DNA from: Ignavibacteria bacterium
GTDB taxonomy: Bacteria; Bacteroidota; Ignavibacteria; Kapaibacteriales; UBA961
Direction of reading: 5' to 3'
DNA: 64,000 nucleotides
Assembly (NCBI GenBank): GCA_947491315.1
Contig: CANLII010000010.1
Location: forward strand, 2,210 to 66,209
The position numbers and the translations under genes are program-made. The first letter of the stretch is position 1. Each line of letters opens with the position of its first letter. Shown piece by piece: positions 53,978 through 60,674 of this stretch. Under the pieces are notes generated by a model, which was given only the letters and a program-made list of their open reading frames with translations, had not been told where the DNA came from and searched no databases.

Positions 53978-54064
53978 GGAGAAGTGCGAGAGTGGTTGAA
54001 TCGGACGGTCTCGAAAACCGTTATAGGAGTAATCCTATCGAGGGTTCGAATCCCTCCTTCTCCG
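53978..54064 (+). tRNA. tRNA-Ser(CGA)
   Basis: GGAGAAG/CTTCTCC acceptor stem, ACGGT-CTCGAAA-ACCGT anticodon arm, long variable arm, GGTTCGAATCC T-arm; CCA not encoded. Confidence 0.97.
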
Positions 54065-54091
54065 CAACCCAGGTAGAGACTGGAAACTTTT

Positions 54092-54127
54092 GACCGATGA
54101 TTACAATGTGTAGTCATCGGTTTTTTT
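54092..54127 (+). terminator. Intrinsic terminator after the tRNA
   Basis: GACCGATGATTACA-ATG-TGTAGTCATCGGTT plus T-tract. Confidence 0.85.
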
Positions 54128-54323
54128 ATTGGTCTTGGTATTGTCGGGTAGGTATAAATCTTTCACTAACTGTATTGTATTCTATGTAGTTATAGTAGTA
54201 TCAGTTGTATTTCTGACCTCATCATTTCATCACATTCACATCATCATAGTTTACATTCAACACAGTCTCATTCATCTGTATTAAAAGGGGTAAAACGATA
54301 AAAAAAGGGTAATTACAGTATCT

Positions 54324-54366
54324 AATTCGTAACCTTTTGGTCACTTTTTGAAAAAGGTTACGAATT
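54324..54366. repeat. Perfect 15-bp inverted repeat
   Basis: AATTCGTAACCTTTT-N13-AAAAGGTTACGAATT; a third GTAACCTTTT copy at 54456-54465. Confidence 0.9.
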
Positions 54367-54689
54367 TCCCTACAAGTGAGTATTCATCAGTGTAGTTGGG
54401 TATTCGTATTTGAGGGAAATTGAGGTGATACTGAACACTTTTGGTGTCTTTTACAGTAACCTTTTAGATGATTAATTGAACTCGAAAATGACCGTGCCCT
54501 TTGTTTTATACATAAACAAAGTCAAGATAGATAAGGAAATATCAAGATAACACTATCAACAATGCCTCTATATTTCCAATTGCATTGTATTTTTGACCAC
54601 AATGAAAAATTCCAAACCATTACTTAGTAGTAAACTTTAACGAACTTATTTGTTTATCCTTTAGCTCACTCTTATACTCCGGTATCAAC

Positions 54690-55487
54690 ATGCTTCGAAA
54701 TATATTTCACTCTTTGACAGTGCTCGTATTGAGTACTTCCCTATTACTTATCGGTTGTTCAGATCATCCATCAAATTCCATACATGATGATCATGGCTCC
54801 ATTCAAGTTTCTATTGATCATGTATTTGATTCTGCACCTTTCATGTTCGATAAGGCATATTCACTCCCAAATGGTGAATCAGTGAAAGGAACAATGTTGA
54901 AGTATTATGTTAGCAATATCTCGTTTGAAAAAGCAGACGGTTCAACTCATGTCATTCCTCAGGATGAATCTTACTTTTTTATTGATGAATCAATTGAGAG
55001 TTCAAAAAAGGTACTATTGGACCATATTCCATCTGGTACATATACCGCAATTCGATTTACTATTGGAGTTGATTCACTTCGTTCGACCATGGGACTCGAC
55101 AAGAGAAAAGGAATTCTTGATATTGGTGCTGCTGCTCAGGACATGTACTGGTCATGGAATTCTGGTTATATCCACTTGAAATTTGAAGGTTCATTTACTG
55201 CTCCAAATTCTTCAGGTGATATACGATATCATGTCGGAGGTTTTGGTGGTTATTCCTCCCCCACAATCAATGCCATTCGAAATATCCGATTAACTCTTAA
55301 TACTGCTCCATTGGTGGTTACAGGAACTTCTCAAAAGTCATTGGCACTTTCCGCTGATTTGAAGAAAATGTTCACGGGATCAATCCCCTTTTCCGTAGCA
55401 GAGAATTCATCCGTAATGTTTTCACCTTTTTGTGTGACAATAGCCGATAATTATGCAACGATGTTTTCTGTAGTAAACAAGGATTAA
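54690..55487 (+). CDS. mbnP: MbnP-family copper-binding lipoprotein
   Basis: Lipobox LIGC; LKYYVSNI, GVDS, MYWSWNSGYIHLKFEG (WxW), HVGG motifs. Confidence 0.88.
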   Translation: MLRNIFHSLTVLVLSTSLLLIGCSDHPSNSIHDDHGSIQVSIDHVFDSAPFMFDKAYSLPNGESVKGTMLKYYVSNISFEKADGSTHVIPQDESYFFIDESIESSKKVLLDHIPSGTYTAIRFTIGVDSLRSTMGLDKRKGILDIGAAAQDMYWSWNSGYIHLKFEGSFTAPNSSGDIRYHVGGFGGYSSPTINAIRNIRLTLNTAPLVVTGTSQKSLALSADLKKMFTGSIPFSVAENSSVMFSPFCVTIADNYATMFSVVNKD

Positions 55488-55490
55488 TCA

Positions 55491-56528
55491 ATGAGATTAA
55501 CAGGAAATATATTGCTACTAGGATTGTGTTCAATTCTTCTGTCCTGCGGTGAAACCACACAGCCTGAAGAGTCATTTGATGTCACATTCACGGTTCCTTC
55601 TAATTTTCCTGCACCTGTCTATGATGTATCAAAAAACCCCATTACCAAAGATGGCTTCTTGCTTGGCAAGAAATTGTTTTATGATGGCATTCTCTCGAAA
55701 GATGCCTCGATTTCATGCGGAACTTGCCATATACAATCATCCGGATTTACTCAACATGGACATGATCTCAGCCATGGCATTGCAGATCGGTTGACTTTGC
55801 GCAATACTCCCGGCATTCAGAATGTGGCTTGGAAAAAGTTTTTTCAATGGGATGGCGGAGTTTTTAACCTTGACCTTTTTGCCATAAATCCCATTACAGC
55901 TCATAATGAAATGGATGAAACCCTTGAGAATATATTAACCAAATTACGAAGACATGCTCACTATCCCGGATTGTTCAAATCTGCATTTGGTTCAGAAGAG
56001 ATAACTACAGAGCGCTTTCTGAAGGCACTCTCCCAATTTCAATTGATGTTTATTTCTTCCGGCTCTAAGTATGATAAAGTCATGCGAAATGAAGGAGTTA
56101 CATTCACGGTTGAAGAGCAAGACGGTTATTCAGTATTTAAACAAAAATGCGCGACTTGCCATACTGAGCCATTATTCAGTGATGAATCCTTCAGAAATAC
56201 AGGCCTTGCGGTCAGAAATCAGAATGATAAAGGTAGGGCTCTCATCACATTGAATGAAAAAGATGTCTATGCCTATATAGTGCCCTCATTACGAAATATC
56301 ATGATCACTGCTCCATATATGCATGATGGTCGTTTTGATAATATAGACAAAGTGCTCAATCATTATGAAAAAGGGATGATTGATTCACCATATCTTGATT
56401 CTATTTTTAAACAACAAAATCCTGCCGGAATAGCTCTTTCAGAGCAAGACAAGACCGCATTAAAGGCATTCCTTCATACACTCACAGATCAAGAGTTTGT
56501 GCAAAGAAGAATGCTTTCTGAGTATTAA
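55491..56528 (+). CDS. mbnH: Di-heme cytochrome c peroxidase, MbnH/MauG family
   Basis: CGTCH and CATCH heme motifs; PSLRN, TAPYMHDGRF motifs; directly follows mbnP. Confidence 0.88.
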   Translation: MRLTGNILLLGLCSILLSCGETTQPEESFDVTFTVPSNFPAPVYDVSKNPITKDGFLLGKKLFYDGILSKDASISCGTCHIQSSGFTQHGHDLSHGIADRLTLRNTPGIQNVAWKKFFQWDGGVFNLDLFAINPITAHNEMDETLENILTKLRRHAHYPGLFKSAFGSEEITTERFLKALSQFQLMFISSGSKYDKVMRNEGVTFTVEEQDGYSVFKQKCATCHTEPLFSDESFRNTGLAVRNQNDKGRALITLNEKDVYAYIVPSLRNIMITAPYMHDGRFDNIDKVLNHYEKGMIDSPYLDSIFKQQNPAGIALSEQDKTALKAFLHTLTDQEFVQRRMLSEY

Positions 56529-56532
56529 TATG

Positions 56533-56627
56533 ATTGTCATATCAATCTGACACCACCCTTACACAACACACACAATTTTACATCGTCGAGCACTATAGAT
56601 ACTCCTTCTTACCATTGATATATCAAT
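56533..56627. promoter_or_regulatory. Two related palindromic 14-mers, candidate enhancer (UAS) sites
   Basis: ATTGTCATATCAAT (56533-56546) and ATTGATATATCAAT (56614-56627). Confidence 0.45.
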
Positions 56628-56707
56628 ATTTTTGAATGTCTTAGAAGCATGTGTTCATAAGGGTTTTAGGCAATTCGATACTATCGGCTTCACCCACCTA
56701 AAAAAGT

Positions 56708-56724
56708 TTGGCACGGCAAATGCA
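56708..56724 (+). promoter_or_regulatory. Candidate sigma-54 (-24/-12) promoter
   Basis: TTGGCACGGCAAATGCA gives TGGCACG-N4-ATGC with exact GG-N10-GC spacing, about 105 nt before ATG 56831. Confidence 0.65.
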
Positions 56725-56830
56725 TTATGTATTTCTGTGCGACGATATGATACACAATCAGAATATATTTTCAGGGTTTGCACAGCAATTTTTCAATTTC
56801 ATTTTTACATCTTTTATTAGGGTTTTTTGT

Positions 56831-57232
56831 ATGAAAAGCATCGTTTTTTTGCTCGCTTTTGTTGCAATGTCAACAACACTCTTTGCACAACATCAAGTTT
56901 TGGGTCAGTCACCAAGAAGTGCAAAAATCTATACTAAACAAGTGAGTAATCATCAAGTTCTTGGTCAATCACCAAGAAGCGCGAAGATTTACAATTCAGA
57001 ATATGTTCCGGTTGCTGCTACAGCAGAAGTGCAAAATCAAGAACAAGAGTCAACACATTTGGTATTGGGGCAATCACCAAGAAGCGCGAAGATTTATAAT
57101 TCTACATATGTTCCAACTCATATCGTACTTGGTCAATCACCAAGAAGCGCCATTGTTTATAATTCAGATGGATATGAATTGTGGAAGTATCGTAATGGCG
57201 TATTCAATGTTTCATTGAAATCTGTTAAGTAA
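56831..57232 (+). CDS. Small secreted protein with four HxVLGQSPRSAxxY repeats
   Basis: Signal peptide MKSIVFLLAFVAMSTTLFA-Q; repeats conserved at the protein level with synonymous codon variation. Confidence 0.85.
   Translation: MKSIVFLLAFVAMSTTLFAQHQVLGQSPRSAKIYTKQVSNHQVLGQSPRSAKIYNSEYVPVAATAEVQNQEQESTHLVLGQSPRSAKIYNSTYVPTHIVLGQSPRSAIVYNSDGYELWKYRNGVFNVSLKSVK
56891..57160 (+). repeat. Four 42-nt coding repeats
   Basis: Copies start at 56891, 56951, 57056 and 57119; shared core CARTCACCAAGAAGYGC. Confidence 0.9.
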
Positions 57233-57304
57233 CACTGTACACATTCTTCTCATCAGAGGAAGAATTCTTTTATTCCATTAGGGTTTTTGAAAACAAGGGT
57301 AATT

Positions 57305-57832
57305 ATGAAAAAAACTTGGATTGCTATTGCAATTACATGTTCACTTGGATTTATTGGTTGCGACAAAACTTCAAATCCGGTAGAGGTCACGGAAAACAAA
57401 TCTGAGATTATTCAGCATCCCACTACTGTGGAAGGCATGCCGATCATGACAAGAATGAGCATTCCTGTTGAAGTGGTACTTGAATCATGTCTACACTTAT
57501 CTGCTGATCAAAAGAAAGTATGCACTGTGAATCGCAGTGAATTTATTGAAATGAAGATTTCGGAATCTGAACGCATCAAATCATTGGATGACATTCAGAA
57601 AGCAAAGCAGAGTAGACTGGAAAAGTTAGAACGTTATGATCCTGATTATGGACTTAAATTCAGATTAATTGAAACAGAGTTTGAAGGGAAAAAACACTAT
57701 GTGGAAGAGTACACATCCTTTTGGCTGAAAAGTCTCTCTCAAAGAGTATCCAATTCATTCCGTGAAGTCATGAATGACAAACAAAAGAAAATATGGAATG
57801 AATGGATCGTTCTGAATAAAAAGCCCTGTTGA
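57305..57832 (+). CDS. Hypothetical helical lipoprotein, Spy/CpxP-like
   Basis: Lipobox FIGC; two LTxxQ-like motifs (LSADQK, MNDKQK); start moved to ATG 57305. Confidence 0.6.
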   Translation: MKKTWIAIAITCSLGFIGCDKTSNPVEVTENKSEIIQHPTTVEGMPIMTRMSIPVEVVLESCLHLSADQKKVCTVNRSEFIEMKISESERIKSLDDIQKAKQSRLEKLERYDPDYGLKFRLIETEFEGKKHYVEEYTSFWLKSLSQRVSNSFREVMNDKQKKIWNEWIVLNKKPC

Positions 57833-57899
57833 AATCCATTTCTCGCAATTCTGTTTTTCTGTGTAAATTACATGGTCGACAATCAATTGCGAGTCTCAC

Positions 57900-60335
57900 A
57901 TGACATATATATCCCTATTCGTACTTTTCTTCTGCTCAATCAGCATGCATTCCCAGCAATCACTCATCGGGTATTTCCACAATTGGAATTCTCAAGATGT
58001 TGCATGGGTGCATCCACAGAGCATTGATTCTCGTTATTCCGTGATTGCAATTGCATTTGCGATGCCGGCTTCGAATACGGACATGACTATGACATTCACT
58101 CCTGAGAATATGTCTGCAAGTGCATTCAAACAAGCAATTGCTCAGTTGAAAGCTCAGGGTAAAAAAGTGATTATTAGCATCGGGGGCGCAACTGCCTATC
58201 TGGATTTTCCAACAGATGCCGTGAAAAACGACTTCATTAATTCAATGAATTCCATCATGGATTATTATGAATTCGATGGTATTGATATTGACATAGAACA
58301 TGGAAATTGCATTCTGATTACAGGTGGTTCAATCGTAAATCCGGCAAATGCTTCACAAGTTCGGCTCATAGATGCAATCAAGTCCATCATGAATCATCAT
58401 CGTACAAGCAAAGGGAAAAAGATGATGCTCACCATGGCTCCGGAAACAGCGTATGTGCAAGGTGGGCAGTCTGCATTTGGTAGCATTTGGGGTGGATACT
58501 TACCAATCATTCATGCACTTCGTGATTCTTTGGATATTCTTCAAGTTCAACTCTATAATTCCGGAACCATGTTTGGCATTGATCGTAATATATATTCGCA
58601 AGGTACCGCTGACTTCATCGTGGCAATGACAGAAGCCGTGATTCAAGGATTTCCTACCGGTGGCGGACAATTCGTCGGTCTTCCCGCTTCCAAAGTGGCG
58701 GTTGGACTTCCCGCTTGCAATCAAGCAGCCGGTGGTGGATTTGTAGATACGGCGACTATTTCTCAGGCAATGAAATATCTACTTGGAAAAGGGAATAAAC
58801 CGGGATCATATTCTCTGGTGTCTCCTGGTGGATATTCAACATTGAAGGGCATGATGACATGGAGCATCAATTGGGATGCAAGAGAACAATGCAATGGTGC
58901 TTATTCATTTGCCGGATGTTATGACAGATTATTTGGCAATACTCCATTGCCGCCTGCTCAAGTGACAATGCTTGCGCCTCAGTATGGACAAAAAATCACC
59001 GCAGAAACAGTATCATTTCGATGGAATAAAGTCAATAATGCAGTATATCATATTGAGATTTTACGAGGTGGAACAATCATCAAAAGTGATTCAACTTTGT
59101 CCGATACCACATTCAAGATTTCAAATTTGGAATATTCGCAATTGCATACTTGGAGAGTACGCGCAAAGAATGCGCAAGGATGGAGTCAGTGGAATAGTCC
59201 TTGGACATTCACTTCAAGCGATTTACCCATTCCATCACAAGTAATCGCATTGTCTCCTGAGAATTTCACAAAAGTGAACAAGGACAGTCTCATTCAATTC
59301 AGATGGAAAAGTGCCCAAAGCAATATTTCATCATATGTGTTCACACTCAAAAAAGGGAGTGAAATCATTCACAGAAAATCAGATGTCAAGGATACGCTCT
59401 ATTCTTATGCTCTCCCTGATTTTGATGCCACCTATTCTTGGAATGTACAAGCGGTCAATTCATCGGGTAGCGGTTTCCCAAGTGATCAGCGATTCATCGT
59501 CACCAATCCAAAACCACTTGATCCTCCGGGACTTGTGACATTGCTCGAACCAAATGCACAAGAAATCATCACTGATTCCATACTTTTCAGATGGTCAAAA
59601 TCCACTCCTTCGGTTTCAAGATATCATATTCAGATAGAACTTGATGGCACCATACTCATTGAAGATTTCATGATGATTGACACATCGCTCATGGTTTCCA
59701 TGCCGGATAAAAGCGGCATCCTCAATTGGAAAGTCCGTGCATTTAATCCATCAGGCTATGGTCCGTGGAGCATTTCAGACAGCATTCGATATCGCAGATT
59801 GCCGCCCATGCCACTTGCAACCAAGTTTTTGAATGTGCCCGACAGCATCAATATCATGACAGATACAGTTACAATTGCATGGGAAAAAGTTGATTTTGCA
59901 GATACATATCAGATAGAAGTAATGAGCGCGGATAGTCAATACAATCATGACACCAGTCTTGCAAATACTTCGATTTCTCTCAAATACTTGAAAGATGGTC
60001 ATGTGTATTCAGTGAGAGTACGTTCCAAGAATGAAAGAGGCTTATCAGCATGGAGCGTACCATTGATAATTACTGTTAACTTCCCCATCTCCTCATTATA
60101 CGATGGACAGGATTTACAGGATTGGTTTATAATTGAAGATGCTGATAGAACACTTCGAATTAAGAGTCAGACTGCTTTGAAAGCAATGTCTATTCAACTG
60201 TTTGATCTTCAAGGAAGAAAAAGATTCGAGCAATCTTTGGATTCACAAGAGGTCCTAATTCCACTTCATGAGTACTCTTCCGGAGTGTATTTTCTTCGGA
60301 TCAATCAACAATTTCGCCCCATTTTTATTCAATAA
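57900..60335 (+). CDS. GH18 chitinase-like glycoside hydrolase with four FN3-like domains and T9SS CTD
   Basis: IGYFHNW, SIGG, FDGIDIDIE catalytic DxDxE, QLYN, GMMTWSINWD; repeated W-x-VRA-x-N-x2-G; SGVYFLRI tail. Confidence 0.92.
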   Translation: MTYISLFVLFFCSISMHSQQSLIGYFHNWNSQDVAWVHPQSIDSRYSVIAIAFAMPASNTDMTMTFTPENMSASAFKQAIAQLKAQGKKVIISIGGATAYLDFPTDAVKNDFINSMNSIMDYYEFDGIDIDIEHGNCILITGGSIVNPANASQVRLIDAIKSIMNHHRTSKGKKMMLTMAPETAYVQGGQSAFGSIWGGYLPIIHALRDSLDILQVQLYNSGTMFGIDRNIYSQGTADFIVAMTEAVIQGFPTGGGQFVGLPASKVAVGLPACNQAAGGGFVDTATISQAMKYLLGKGNKPGSYSLVSPGGYSTLKGMMTWSINWDAREQCNGAYSFAGCYDRLFGNTPLPPAQVTMLAPQYGQKITAETVSFRWNKVNNAVYHIEILRGGTIIKSDSTLSDTTFKISNLEYSQLHTWRVRAKNAQGWSQWNSPWTFTSSDLPIPSQVIALSPENFTKVNKDSLIQFRWKSAQSNISSYVFTLKKGSEIIHRKSDVKDTLYSYALPDFDATYSWNVQAVNSSGSGFPSDQRFIVTNPKPLDPPGLVTLLEPNAQEIITDSILFRWSKSTPSVSRYHIQIELDGTILIEDFMMIDTSLMVSMPDKSGILNWKVRAFNPSGYGPWSISDSIRYRRLPPMPLATKFLNVPDSINIMTDTVTIAWEKVDFADTYQIEVMSADSQYNHDTSLANTSISLKYLKDGHVYSVRVRSKNERGLSAWSVPLIITVNFPISSLYDGQDLQDWFIIEDADRTLRIKSQTALKAMSIQLFDLQGRKRFEQSLDSQEVLIPLHEYSSGVYFLRINQQFRPIFIQ

Positions 60336-60674
60336 AGCATATATCTATCGACATACTTCTACCCTCATTATGTCTGTCTTTTGACAGTAATTAATTTCAT
60401 CTTTCAGGGATATGAAATATGTTGACCATTCTTATCTTCATTGTAAGTGAACACAACGATCTCATTAGGAATACAAGTGAGTTACGTATAATTCTACATG
60501 CCAATTTTCGACATACAATTTGAAATTTACTACAAAGAAATCAGGGGTGATATGTTTGTATTTACACCGGATAATCCAATGCAATTATCCATGCAACAAA
60601 AGGGTATACAGACCACTGTCTATATTATTCTTTGATAATAAATATGGCGAAATCTTGAAGCAAATGGGTATTAG

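Follow-up and report, generated by a model that had tools for sequence, protein, structure and literature searches.

The DNA analysed here (from here: the window) is a stretch of 64,000 nt from contig CANLII010000010.1 of an Ignavibacteria bacterium (assembly GCA_947491315.1). On its forward strand, positions 56831..57232 form an open frame of 133 codons, and the name REP is used for the 133-aa product. Translation of this gene bears out an earlier note, made from the sequence alone, which had described a 133-aa open reading frame with four HxVLGQSPRSAxxY units. The core of these units recurs once in a second protein, a predicted outer-membrane barrel that is encoded in related loci.

The REP gene and its repeated units

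The N-terminus of REP, MKSIVFLLAFVAMSTTLFA|Q, is conserved in all relatives. Its first 19 residues (56831..56887, forward strand) resemble a signal peptide and consist of MKS, a hydrophobic stretch and an A|Q junction. The earlier note had proposed a Sec-type signal peptide at this position; the hydrophobic pattern and a predicted helix at aa 3–20 agree with that proposal, and export itself is what these two features would suggest. The first unit begins 1–2 residues past the predicted signal cleavage site.

The four units, all on the forward strand, are located at 56891..56932 (aa 21–34, HQVLGQSPRSAKIY), 56951..56992 (aa 41–54, HQVLGQSPRSAKIY), 57056..57097 (aa 76–89, HLVLGQSPRSAKIY) and 57119..57160 (aa 97–110, HIVLGQSPRSAIVY). 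Units 2 and 3 are directly followed by NSxYVP, as had been noted before, and a long acidic linker (aa 55–75) precedes unit 3. The C-terminal tail NSDGYELWKYRNGVFNVSLKSVK, which together with the stop codon occupies 57161..57232 on the forward strand, represents one of the three unrelated tail types of the family. There is no Cys in REP and no Met in its mature part. At the DNA level, a repeat search returned four copies of a 73-nt unit with 60–77% identity, and Tandem Repeats Finder reported nothing over the units because their spacing is irregular (60, 105 and 63 nt).

A longer frame of 174 codons from a TTG at 56708 was rejected as an artefact that traverses the promoter and the 5′ untranslated region (5′ UTR). 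The public gene calls P0002, P0003, P0007, P0011, P0013 and P0025 over-extend REP by 37–54 residues into this same region, by which the length is inflated to 169–205 aa and the signal peptide is hidden. The over-called relatives share an upstream "protein", MHYVFLCDDMIH, a pointer to conserved upstream DNA.

An AlphaFold2 model of REP, built from an alignment of 23 rows, reached a mean predicted local distance difference test (pLDDT) score of 44.8. Besides the helix at aa 3–20, it contains short strands that flank the GQSPRSA core in units 3 and 4. At the low confidence of this model, REP appears to be a disordered protein, the units of which perhaps form small hairpins.

Metatranscriptome contigs from two studies contain the REP sequence, which fits the expectation of the earlier note that the frame is expressed; neither start, strand nor level can be read from such contigs. 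The RNA contigs X15 and X16 from one of the studies cover positions 56835–57192, X17 covers only small parts, and X19 from the second study, which originates from a relative, reaches from the upstream gene MbnH to REP. Positions 56750–56834 are without cover in X15 and X16, which is uninformative.

The homologues with a conserved core that the earlier note had called for exist. A word-indexed search at E ≤ 0.01 returned 56 related proteins with lengths of 75–205 aa, and scans of genome and metagenome contigs yielded 11 plus 26 loci in addition to that of the window, with L024 being the same contig as L006. Unit statistics are based on 161 units from all 38 loci, 97 of which are distinct at the DNA level. 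Seven residues, L, G, Q, S, P, R and A, are unchanged in 97/97 distinct units, each of them encoded by 2–5 synonymous codons. Within the window DNA, all the synonymous differences listed before (ttg/ctt, ggt/ggg, cag/caa, agt/agc, gca/gcg/gcc) are visible. These observations support the view, already taken in the earlier note, that selection acts on the peptide and not on the DNA.

Other positions of the unit are less strict. The residue after the R of the core is S in 89, N in 7 and C in 1 of the distinct units. A His is found three residues before the core in 74/97 units, with Q or N in its place in first units, and a Tyr is found ten residues after the start of the core in 80/97; in most units the two are 13 residues apart. 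Their invariance, which had been stressed previously, hence holds among the units of the window but not across the family, nor in the copies of the barrel described below. Asn and Lys occur in 74/97 and 68/97 units, respectively.

The number of units varies between 2 and 6 among the relatives, and the linkers and C-terminal tails vary freely. The protein P0015 corresponds to the REP of the window minus unit 3 and its long linker and is otherwise apparently identical. Similarly, the loci L004 and L021 possess one additional unit compared to near-identical strains. Outside the motif, identity falls to 42–52% within the genus.

REP was present in all four other sampled genomes of its genus (5/5 counting all sampled). 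Outside the genus, a whole-genome search did not find it, be it in the genomes from other genera of the same family (0/3) or in the 393 further genomes sampled from the class (396 in all); in an earlier phylum-wide sample, it was found in 0/400 genomes. The sequencing runs that hold the REP stretch are labelled as metagenomes from lake water, freshwater, groundwater and runoff.

There was no meaningful match to REP in Pfam, NCBIfam, PADLOC, PHROGs or the sequences of the PDB, and Pfam gave none with E values up to 10. The REP hits eIF2A (E 0.039), ABCA12_C, LHCI-2 and phrog_7132 were below any threshold and were dismissed as chance. Searches of these collections with the barrel and with the lipoprotein-like protein described below likewise returned nothing meaningful. 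A profile search against 1.84 billion representative proteins gave 17 matches, the seven best of which belong to the REP family or are fragments of it. The other ten were judged to be chance matches, and the eight of them that were inspected are WD40, low-complexity or unrelated repeat proteins. Longer or fused forms of REP were not found among 226 candidates, none of which matched at E ≤ 10, and searches of phage and plasmid collections gave no match. The strings LGQSPR, GQSPRSA, VLGQSPR and QSPRSAK are absent from the searched literature, which covers few subscription journals. The motif, which the author of the earlier note had not recognised, thus has no described family in Pfam, NCBIfam, the PDB or that literature, and no description of the motif, of REP or of the barrel family turned up in the resources searched. 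The general kinds to which they may belong are already known, namely secreted tandem-motif proteins, multi-copy precursors and docking motifs on barrel tails.

A barrel protein carrying the same motif

In related loci, a second gene encodes one LGQSPR[S/N]A right after its own signal-like N-terminus. Intact genes for this protein of 191–197 aa are found at the same place in 13 loci. The protein belongs to no Pfam family, the best hit being OMP_b-brl with an E value of 0.12, and the few relatives it has stem from similar samples. In an AlphaFold2 model of the barrel P0058 (pLDDT 77.6), eight strands follow an N-terminal tail of low confidence, within which the motif lies. Foldseek aligned this model with NspA (1p4t), the OmpA transmembrane domain (1qjp, 1bxw), Ail, OmpW and OmpX, at a probability of 1.00. 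On the strength of this model, the gene can be classified as encoding a predicted 8-stranded outer-membrane beta-barrel. It has the 8-strand barrel fold in common with OmpA, OmpX, OmpW and NspA, but differs from them in the lack of a sequence-family match, in loops that are all short, in the N-terminal motif tail and in its occurrence in one genus only.

In the alignment of the barrel family, no run of invariant columns is longer than the motif. The barrel copies lack the His and the Tyr and have other residues at both positions. When the N-termini of REP and the barrel, each consisting of signal peptide plus motif, were compared by hhalign, the probability was 97.1% (E 5e-11), and judged by this alignment the N-termini of the two families are homologous. 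The two proteins share the signal peptide and the motif, the latter amplified to 2–6 copies in REP, and the direction of descent may have been either way. In six other genomes of the clade, a search of all six frames with a degenerate pattern found the motif only in REP and the barrel, always within the same locus.

In the genome of the window the motif occurs only in REP. A deletion remnant of the barrel gene lies at 60419..60635 on the forward strand, identified by tblastn of the intact relative P0058 and from the sequence. It has kept the start MLTILIFIV (nine codons) and the last 41 codons, and the motif and most of the barrel are gone. Remnants also exist in L014 and L020 (a short C-terminal match of 123 nt), and the gene is intact in the close relatives L013 and L016, which looks like a presence/loss polymorphism within a close population. 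Among five other sampled genomes of the genus, the barrel was full length in two and was not found in the other three; a further 75 genomes from the order were likewise without a match. The barrel is thus a dispensable gene. A complex prediction between the barrel (aa 17–193) and a two-unit piece of REP (aa 72–116) gave a score of 0.00; it was run without controls and counts neither way.

A separate observation concerns G405, a 4.4-Mb metagenome-assembled genome, in which the contigs C4 and C51 contain two complete REP-plus-barrel loci (L053, L076, L080, L081) with differing codon choices. Two strains that were binned together are the likeliest explanation.

Upstream elements and neighbouring genes

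The upstream alignment revealed a sigma-54-type element, TGGCACG-N4-ATGCA, at 56709..56724 on the forward strand (shown as TGGCACGGCAAATGCA), which we take to fit the sigma-54 consensus with GG at −24 and GC at −12. Among the 32 loci with at least 130 nt of upstream sequence, TGGCA[CT]G-N4-ATGCA is found in 28 at −118 to −124 from the ATG, and two of the four misses differ in the last base alone and keep GG and GC. About 170 bp further upstream, the same alignment contains the inverted repeat TGTCA-N8-TGACA (56535..56552, without strand assignment), a candidate binding site of a sigma-54 activator (upstream activating sequence). It is exact at −296 to −300 from the ATG in 22 of the 31 loci with at least 310 nt of upstream sequence, and the second half-site is variant in 4 more. 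The genome of the window has 14 such repeats, and only one of them, that of REP, has a −24/−12 element within 350 bp. The genome also encodes RpoN (Sigma54_DBD, 1.1e-53) and three proteins matching Sigma54_activat (1.6e-72 to 2.2e-59). With a conserved GG/GC and with rpoN and activators in the genome, REP has the sequence features of a sigma-54-dependent gene, and its transcription would proceed from the −24/−12 element. No regulator gene is adjacent to REP in any locus.

At the predicted 5′ end of the mRNA (56736..56785, forward strand), the alignments A4 and A5 contain a conserved inverted repeat, TGTGCGAC ... GTTTGCACA. The corresponding hairpin is weak, with 7 pairs, −1.86 kcal/mol and one compensatory pair. 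We do not claim a structured RNA in the 5′ UTR: this hairpin is weakly supported, and an Rfam search of 54000–58000 returned nothing for the 5′ UTR. The likely ribosome-binding site AGGGTT (56819..56824, forward strand) is located 6 nt before the ATG, and AGGG is invariant in 14/14 aligned upstream regions. AGGGG(T)-like elements also precede the barrel genes and the next gene of the window (57277–57288). The same 12-nt sequence, ATTAGGGTTTTT, stands before the start codons of REP (56816) and of the lipoprotein-like gene that follows it (57277).

Behind the stop codon of the window REP there is a weak, AT-rich, terminator-like hairpin that does not stand out from shuffled sequence (z −0.30). 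A GC-rich stem-loop, GGGYGGCU ... AGCCRCCC, was seen after the REP stop in L005:1450-1490, L006:8615-8650 and L009:910-945 (z −2.5 to −2.7 against shuffles). It has no U-tail, and L007 has a similar sequence behind the stop codon of REP, ahead of the barrel gene.

Upstream of REP, the window encodes MbnP (54690..55487, forward strand; Pfam MbnP 1.1e-47, PF20243; TIGR04039 1.1e-55) and an MbnH-like di-haem peroxidase (55491..56528, forward strand; CCP_MauG 3.4e-46). Both are probably not part of the REP feature. MbnP and MbnH are described as a conserved and self-contained pair (PMC3621798). MbnH is directly upstream of REP in 26/37 other loci; the position is unreadable in 7 and differently occupied in 4, the latter being the most divergent members (L010, L011, L033 and L036). 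In L011, L033 and L036 a TonB-dependent receptor gene lies divergently upstream of REP and a glycosyltransferase-like gene downstream. The complete chromosome G401, which holds L011, has MbnP at 0.93 and 2.06 Mb and REP at 1.54 Mb; in this complete genome of the genus, MbnP/MbnH and REP are not linked. In L010:1367-2689, MbnP is split over three frames and MbnH ends after ~174 residues, and REP, 4 kb away, is intact. These MbnP and MbnH sequences are 70–88% identical to the window genes and represent either decaying genes or an assembly problem. Shared gene order around REP carries little weight because all genomes are from one genus.

The downstream side of REP is variable, with the lipoprotein gene, GH18, the barrel or KatG. 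In the window, a lipoprotein-like gene of 175 aa (57305..57832, forward strand) without a family assignment starts 72 nt downstream of REP and is possibly co-transcribed with it. It is present in 13/37 other loci, only in the sub-lineage with the REP tail type of the window. Its product had no Pfam match even at E 10. Language-model comparisons pointed to LTXXQ-motif (Spy/CpxP-like) proteins with scores of 0.77–0.84, below the reliability mark of 0.9, and are leads only. The interval from REP to the barrel remnant holds, at 57900–60335, the gene of a GH18 glycoside hydrolase, whose further domains are three of the FN3 type and a C-terminal one for type-IX secretion; it occurs in many but not all loci and is not tied to REP. 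The open reading frame downstream of the barrel remnant is presumably KatG, a label taken from the sequence of conserved relatives. Across the loci, REP has no conserved neighbour that encodes a modifying enzyme, a dedicated protease or an exporter, and radical-SAM, YcaO, MNIO, lanthipeptide and P450 families were not found among five scanned neighbours. Farther upstream, ~570 bp of non-coding DNA precede MbnP, following a tRNA-Ser (CGA) at 53978–54065 and a strong terminator-like hairpin at 54092–54122.

Possible roles of the motif

We tentatively prefer the reading that REP is an inducible, disordered envelope protein displaying several copies of a docking or recognition motif, and consider it possible rather than probable. 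REP would be made from its own sigma-54-type promoter once an activator is switched on, would be exported by the Sec pathway and would stay mostly disordered. The intact protein would work in the cell envelope and display 2–6 copies of a short linear motif with the core LGQSPR[S/N]A between short strand-prone segments. A partner, which could be an enzyme or a binding protein, would dock at this motif or recognise it, and the same site would be present once on the periplasmic N-terminal tail of the genus-specific 8-stranded barrel encoded nearby. Because the site is on that tail, REP may be a soluble, multivalent version of the barrel tail and serve whatever reads the motif as a scaffold, as a competing decoy or as a substrate with multiple sites. 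The motif would probably be read by a third component, since REP is kept where the barrel has been lost. The gene and its repeats, the selection on the peptide, the motif common to both proteins, the barrel fold, the predicted disorder and the conserved promoter-like elements are what the analysis shows. Export, periplasmic location, sigma-54 dependence and the binding of something by the motif are the steps that we infer.

Short docking motifs on disordered periplasmic segments are known from the TonB box and from the TolB and TolA boxes of colicins and TolB. The barrel of the REP locus resembles these systems in carrying a short, conserved stretch of sequence within a disordered N-terminal segment, presumably periplasmic; in those systems, such a stretch is read by a partner. 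However, the REP motif has no sequence likeness to such boxes, and the barrel has 8 strands, not 22. We know of no free-standing gene made only of docking motifs of the TonB/Tol type.

Several points weigh against a docking function. Seven invariant residues within eight would suit enzyme recognition or cleavage equally well. The periplasmic location depends on a signal peptide recognised by eye and on the usual topology of 8-stranded outer-membrane barrels, which puts the N-terminal tail in the periplasm. Because the family is confined to one genus, the conservation of REP reflects a limited evolutionary depth. Moreover, GG or GC of the promoter element is changed in 2/32 loci, and the RNA evidence consists of contigs.

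Conserved short cores, variable spacers, a variable number of copies and an export signal are also the usual anatomy of multi-core precursors, such as those of several classes of ribosomally made peptides with post-translational modifications (RiPPs), of fungal Kex2-processed peptides and of peptide pheromones. REP might accordingly be cut at or beside each unit after export, releasing 2–6 similar peptides as a signal or antagonist, which we regard as possible but rather unlikely. The number of units differs between near-identical strains, with one fewer in P0015 and one more in L004 and L021, the first unit follows the predicted signal cleavage site after 1–2 residues, and an inducible, dedicated promoter would suit a signal. 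In one version, V-L-G|Q would resemble a site of signal peptidase I, with Gln at +1 giving pyroglutamate peptides. A Q-rule is documented for Bacteroidetes (PMC5837995, PMC10653852), according to which the +1 Gln of exported proteins is normally cyclised. A crude count in the genome of the window agrees with this, Gln being the commonest residue after signal-like hydrophobic runs (87/460), but the cleavage-site preferences of the genome itself cannot be derived with such a heuristic, and the idea of cutting at V-L-G|Q is for this reason conjectural. Cutting at G|Q would place the conserved residues at the ends of the peptides and the variable ones in between, cutting at the borders of the units would require sites in less conserved positions (His 74/97, Asn 74/97), and a peptide exported by Sec must still pass the outer membrane. 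Furthermore, no gene for a processing protease, exporter or receptor is conserved beside REP, and the same motif is on a membrane barrel that is itself no peptide precursor; a docking or recognition motif fits better than a released peptide because of this second occurrence. The RiPP precursor suggested in the earlier note is poorly supported, MbnH being the sole enzyme nearby and pairing with MbnP. As to a core with a recognition sequence, the picture is mixed: repeated conserved cores are there, with a Sec-type signal in place of a leader and no recognition-element partner. An adjacent receptor or regulator gene, as for Phr-like pheromones, is lacking. The most elaborate form of this reading, a neuropeptide-type polyprotein induced via sigma-54, exported by Sec and cut at every V-L-G|Q into a genus-specific signal with a cyclised, pyroglutamyl Gln, the barrel bearing a tethered ligand or a copy of the cleavage site, seems improbable to us.

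Curli offer another precedent, in which a soluble repeat protein, CsgA, and a membrane-associated protein, CsgB, share a repeat. REP and the barrel are similar in that two proteins of one locus share a unit, many-copy in the soluble and single-copy in the membrane-anchored partner, and in that they would be exported by Sec and be unfolded before assembly. Units that self-associate or become cross-linked into an envelope mesh, with the barrel tail as anchor or nucleator, would be in line with the confinement of the motif to these two proteins, with the weak strand-turn-strand tendency of units 3 and 4, and with the invariant Gln and frequent Lys (68/97), as in Gln/Lys-repeat substrates of transglutaminases; some functional amyloids tolerate variable linker lengths. 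In contrast to curli, however, the REP linkers are irregular, the model has no ordered repeat fold (pLDDT 44.8), and no curli or Fap family, CsgG/FapF-type channel or other accessory gene was found in the locus or among the scanned neighbours. To our knowledge, an 8-stranded barrel is unable to export a protein, and REP persists in genomes without the barrel; polymerisation hence appears to be an unlikely function. Still more doubtful is a relation to copper and the MbnP/MbnH pair, in which REP would be a His/Tyr metal sponge or a RiPP-like substrate oxidised or cross-linked by MbnH. The position of the pair directly upstream in 26/30 readable loci, next to a variable downstream side, and the His and Tyr 13 residues apart in most units would fit, as would a language-model lead to PcoE, which at a score of 0.79 is below the 0.9 reliability mark and remains a lead only. 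PcoE and SilE bind metal via repeated His/Met motifs and, like REP, are disordered proteins of ~130–145 aa with a signal peptide and repeated short motifs; in REP, however, the mature part contains neither Met nor Cys, His is variable, and Pfam matched REP neither to PcoE nor to another family at E ≤ 10. Metal binding or cross-linking via His and Tyr, as proposed in the earlier note, is poorly supported because these two are the softer part of the unit and are exchanged in the barrel copies; the invariant residues are not typical metal ligands. The promoter of REP itself lies ~180 bp past the MbnH stop, MbnP is 0.5–0.6 Mb away from REP in G401, REP is intact next to the frameshifted MbnP and truncated MbnH of L010, gene order is weak evidence within one genus, and the pair is described as self-contained (PMC3621798). 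Bufferins, which are Sec-signal RiPPs modified by MNIO (PMC11626156), are small, Sec-exported and periplasmic and lie near copper-related genes, similar to REP, but they need Cys and an adjacent MNIO/DUF692 gene; REP has no Cys, and no such gene was among the five scanned neighbours. Among the readings considered, those involving copper, an MbnH substrate or a RiPP have the least support. Finally, the restriction to one genus, the 42–52% identity outside the motif and the unstable copy number could indicate a fast-evolving, dispensable young gene without a specific function. Strict purifying selection on the motif makes this highly improbable, and the presence of REP in 5/5 sampled genomes of the genus, its conserved regulatory elements and its sequence in RNA libraries of two studies speak against it as well. 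The remaining probability falls to mechanisms other than these.

If the motif is a docking site as we prefer to think, REP and the barrel would represent a short linear motif system that is new and belongs to the envelope of poorly known, uncultured freshwater bacteria related to the Bacteroidota, including a free-standing "motif-only" protein that may titrate or organise the partner. If REP is processed instead, a Gram-negative bacterium would have a multi-copy peptide signal that depends on Sec, which is a rarity. In practical terms the reach is small, as the family is confined to one genus and there is as yet no link to a process of general importance. The motif shared between REP and the barrel, the sigma-54 control suggested by the upstream elements and the polymorphism in copy number make the locus a reasonable target for a small experimental study. 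Under either reading, the REP locus is an example of how a gene family specific to one genus has evolved in recent times.

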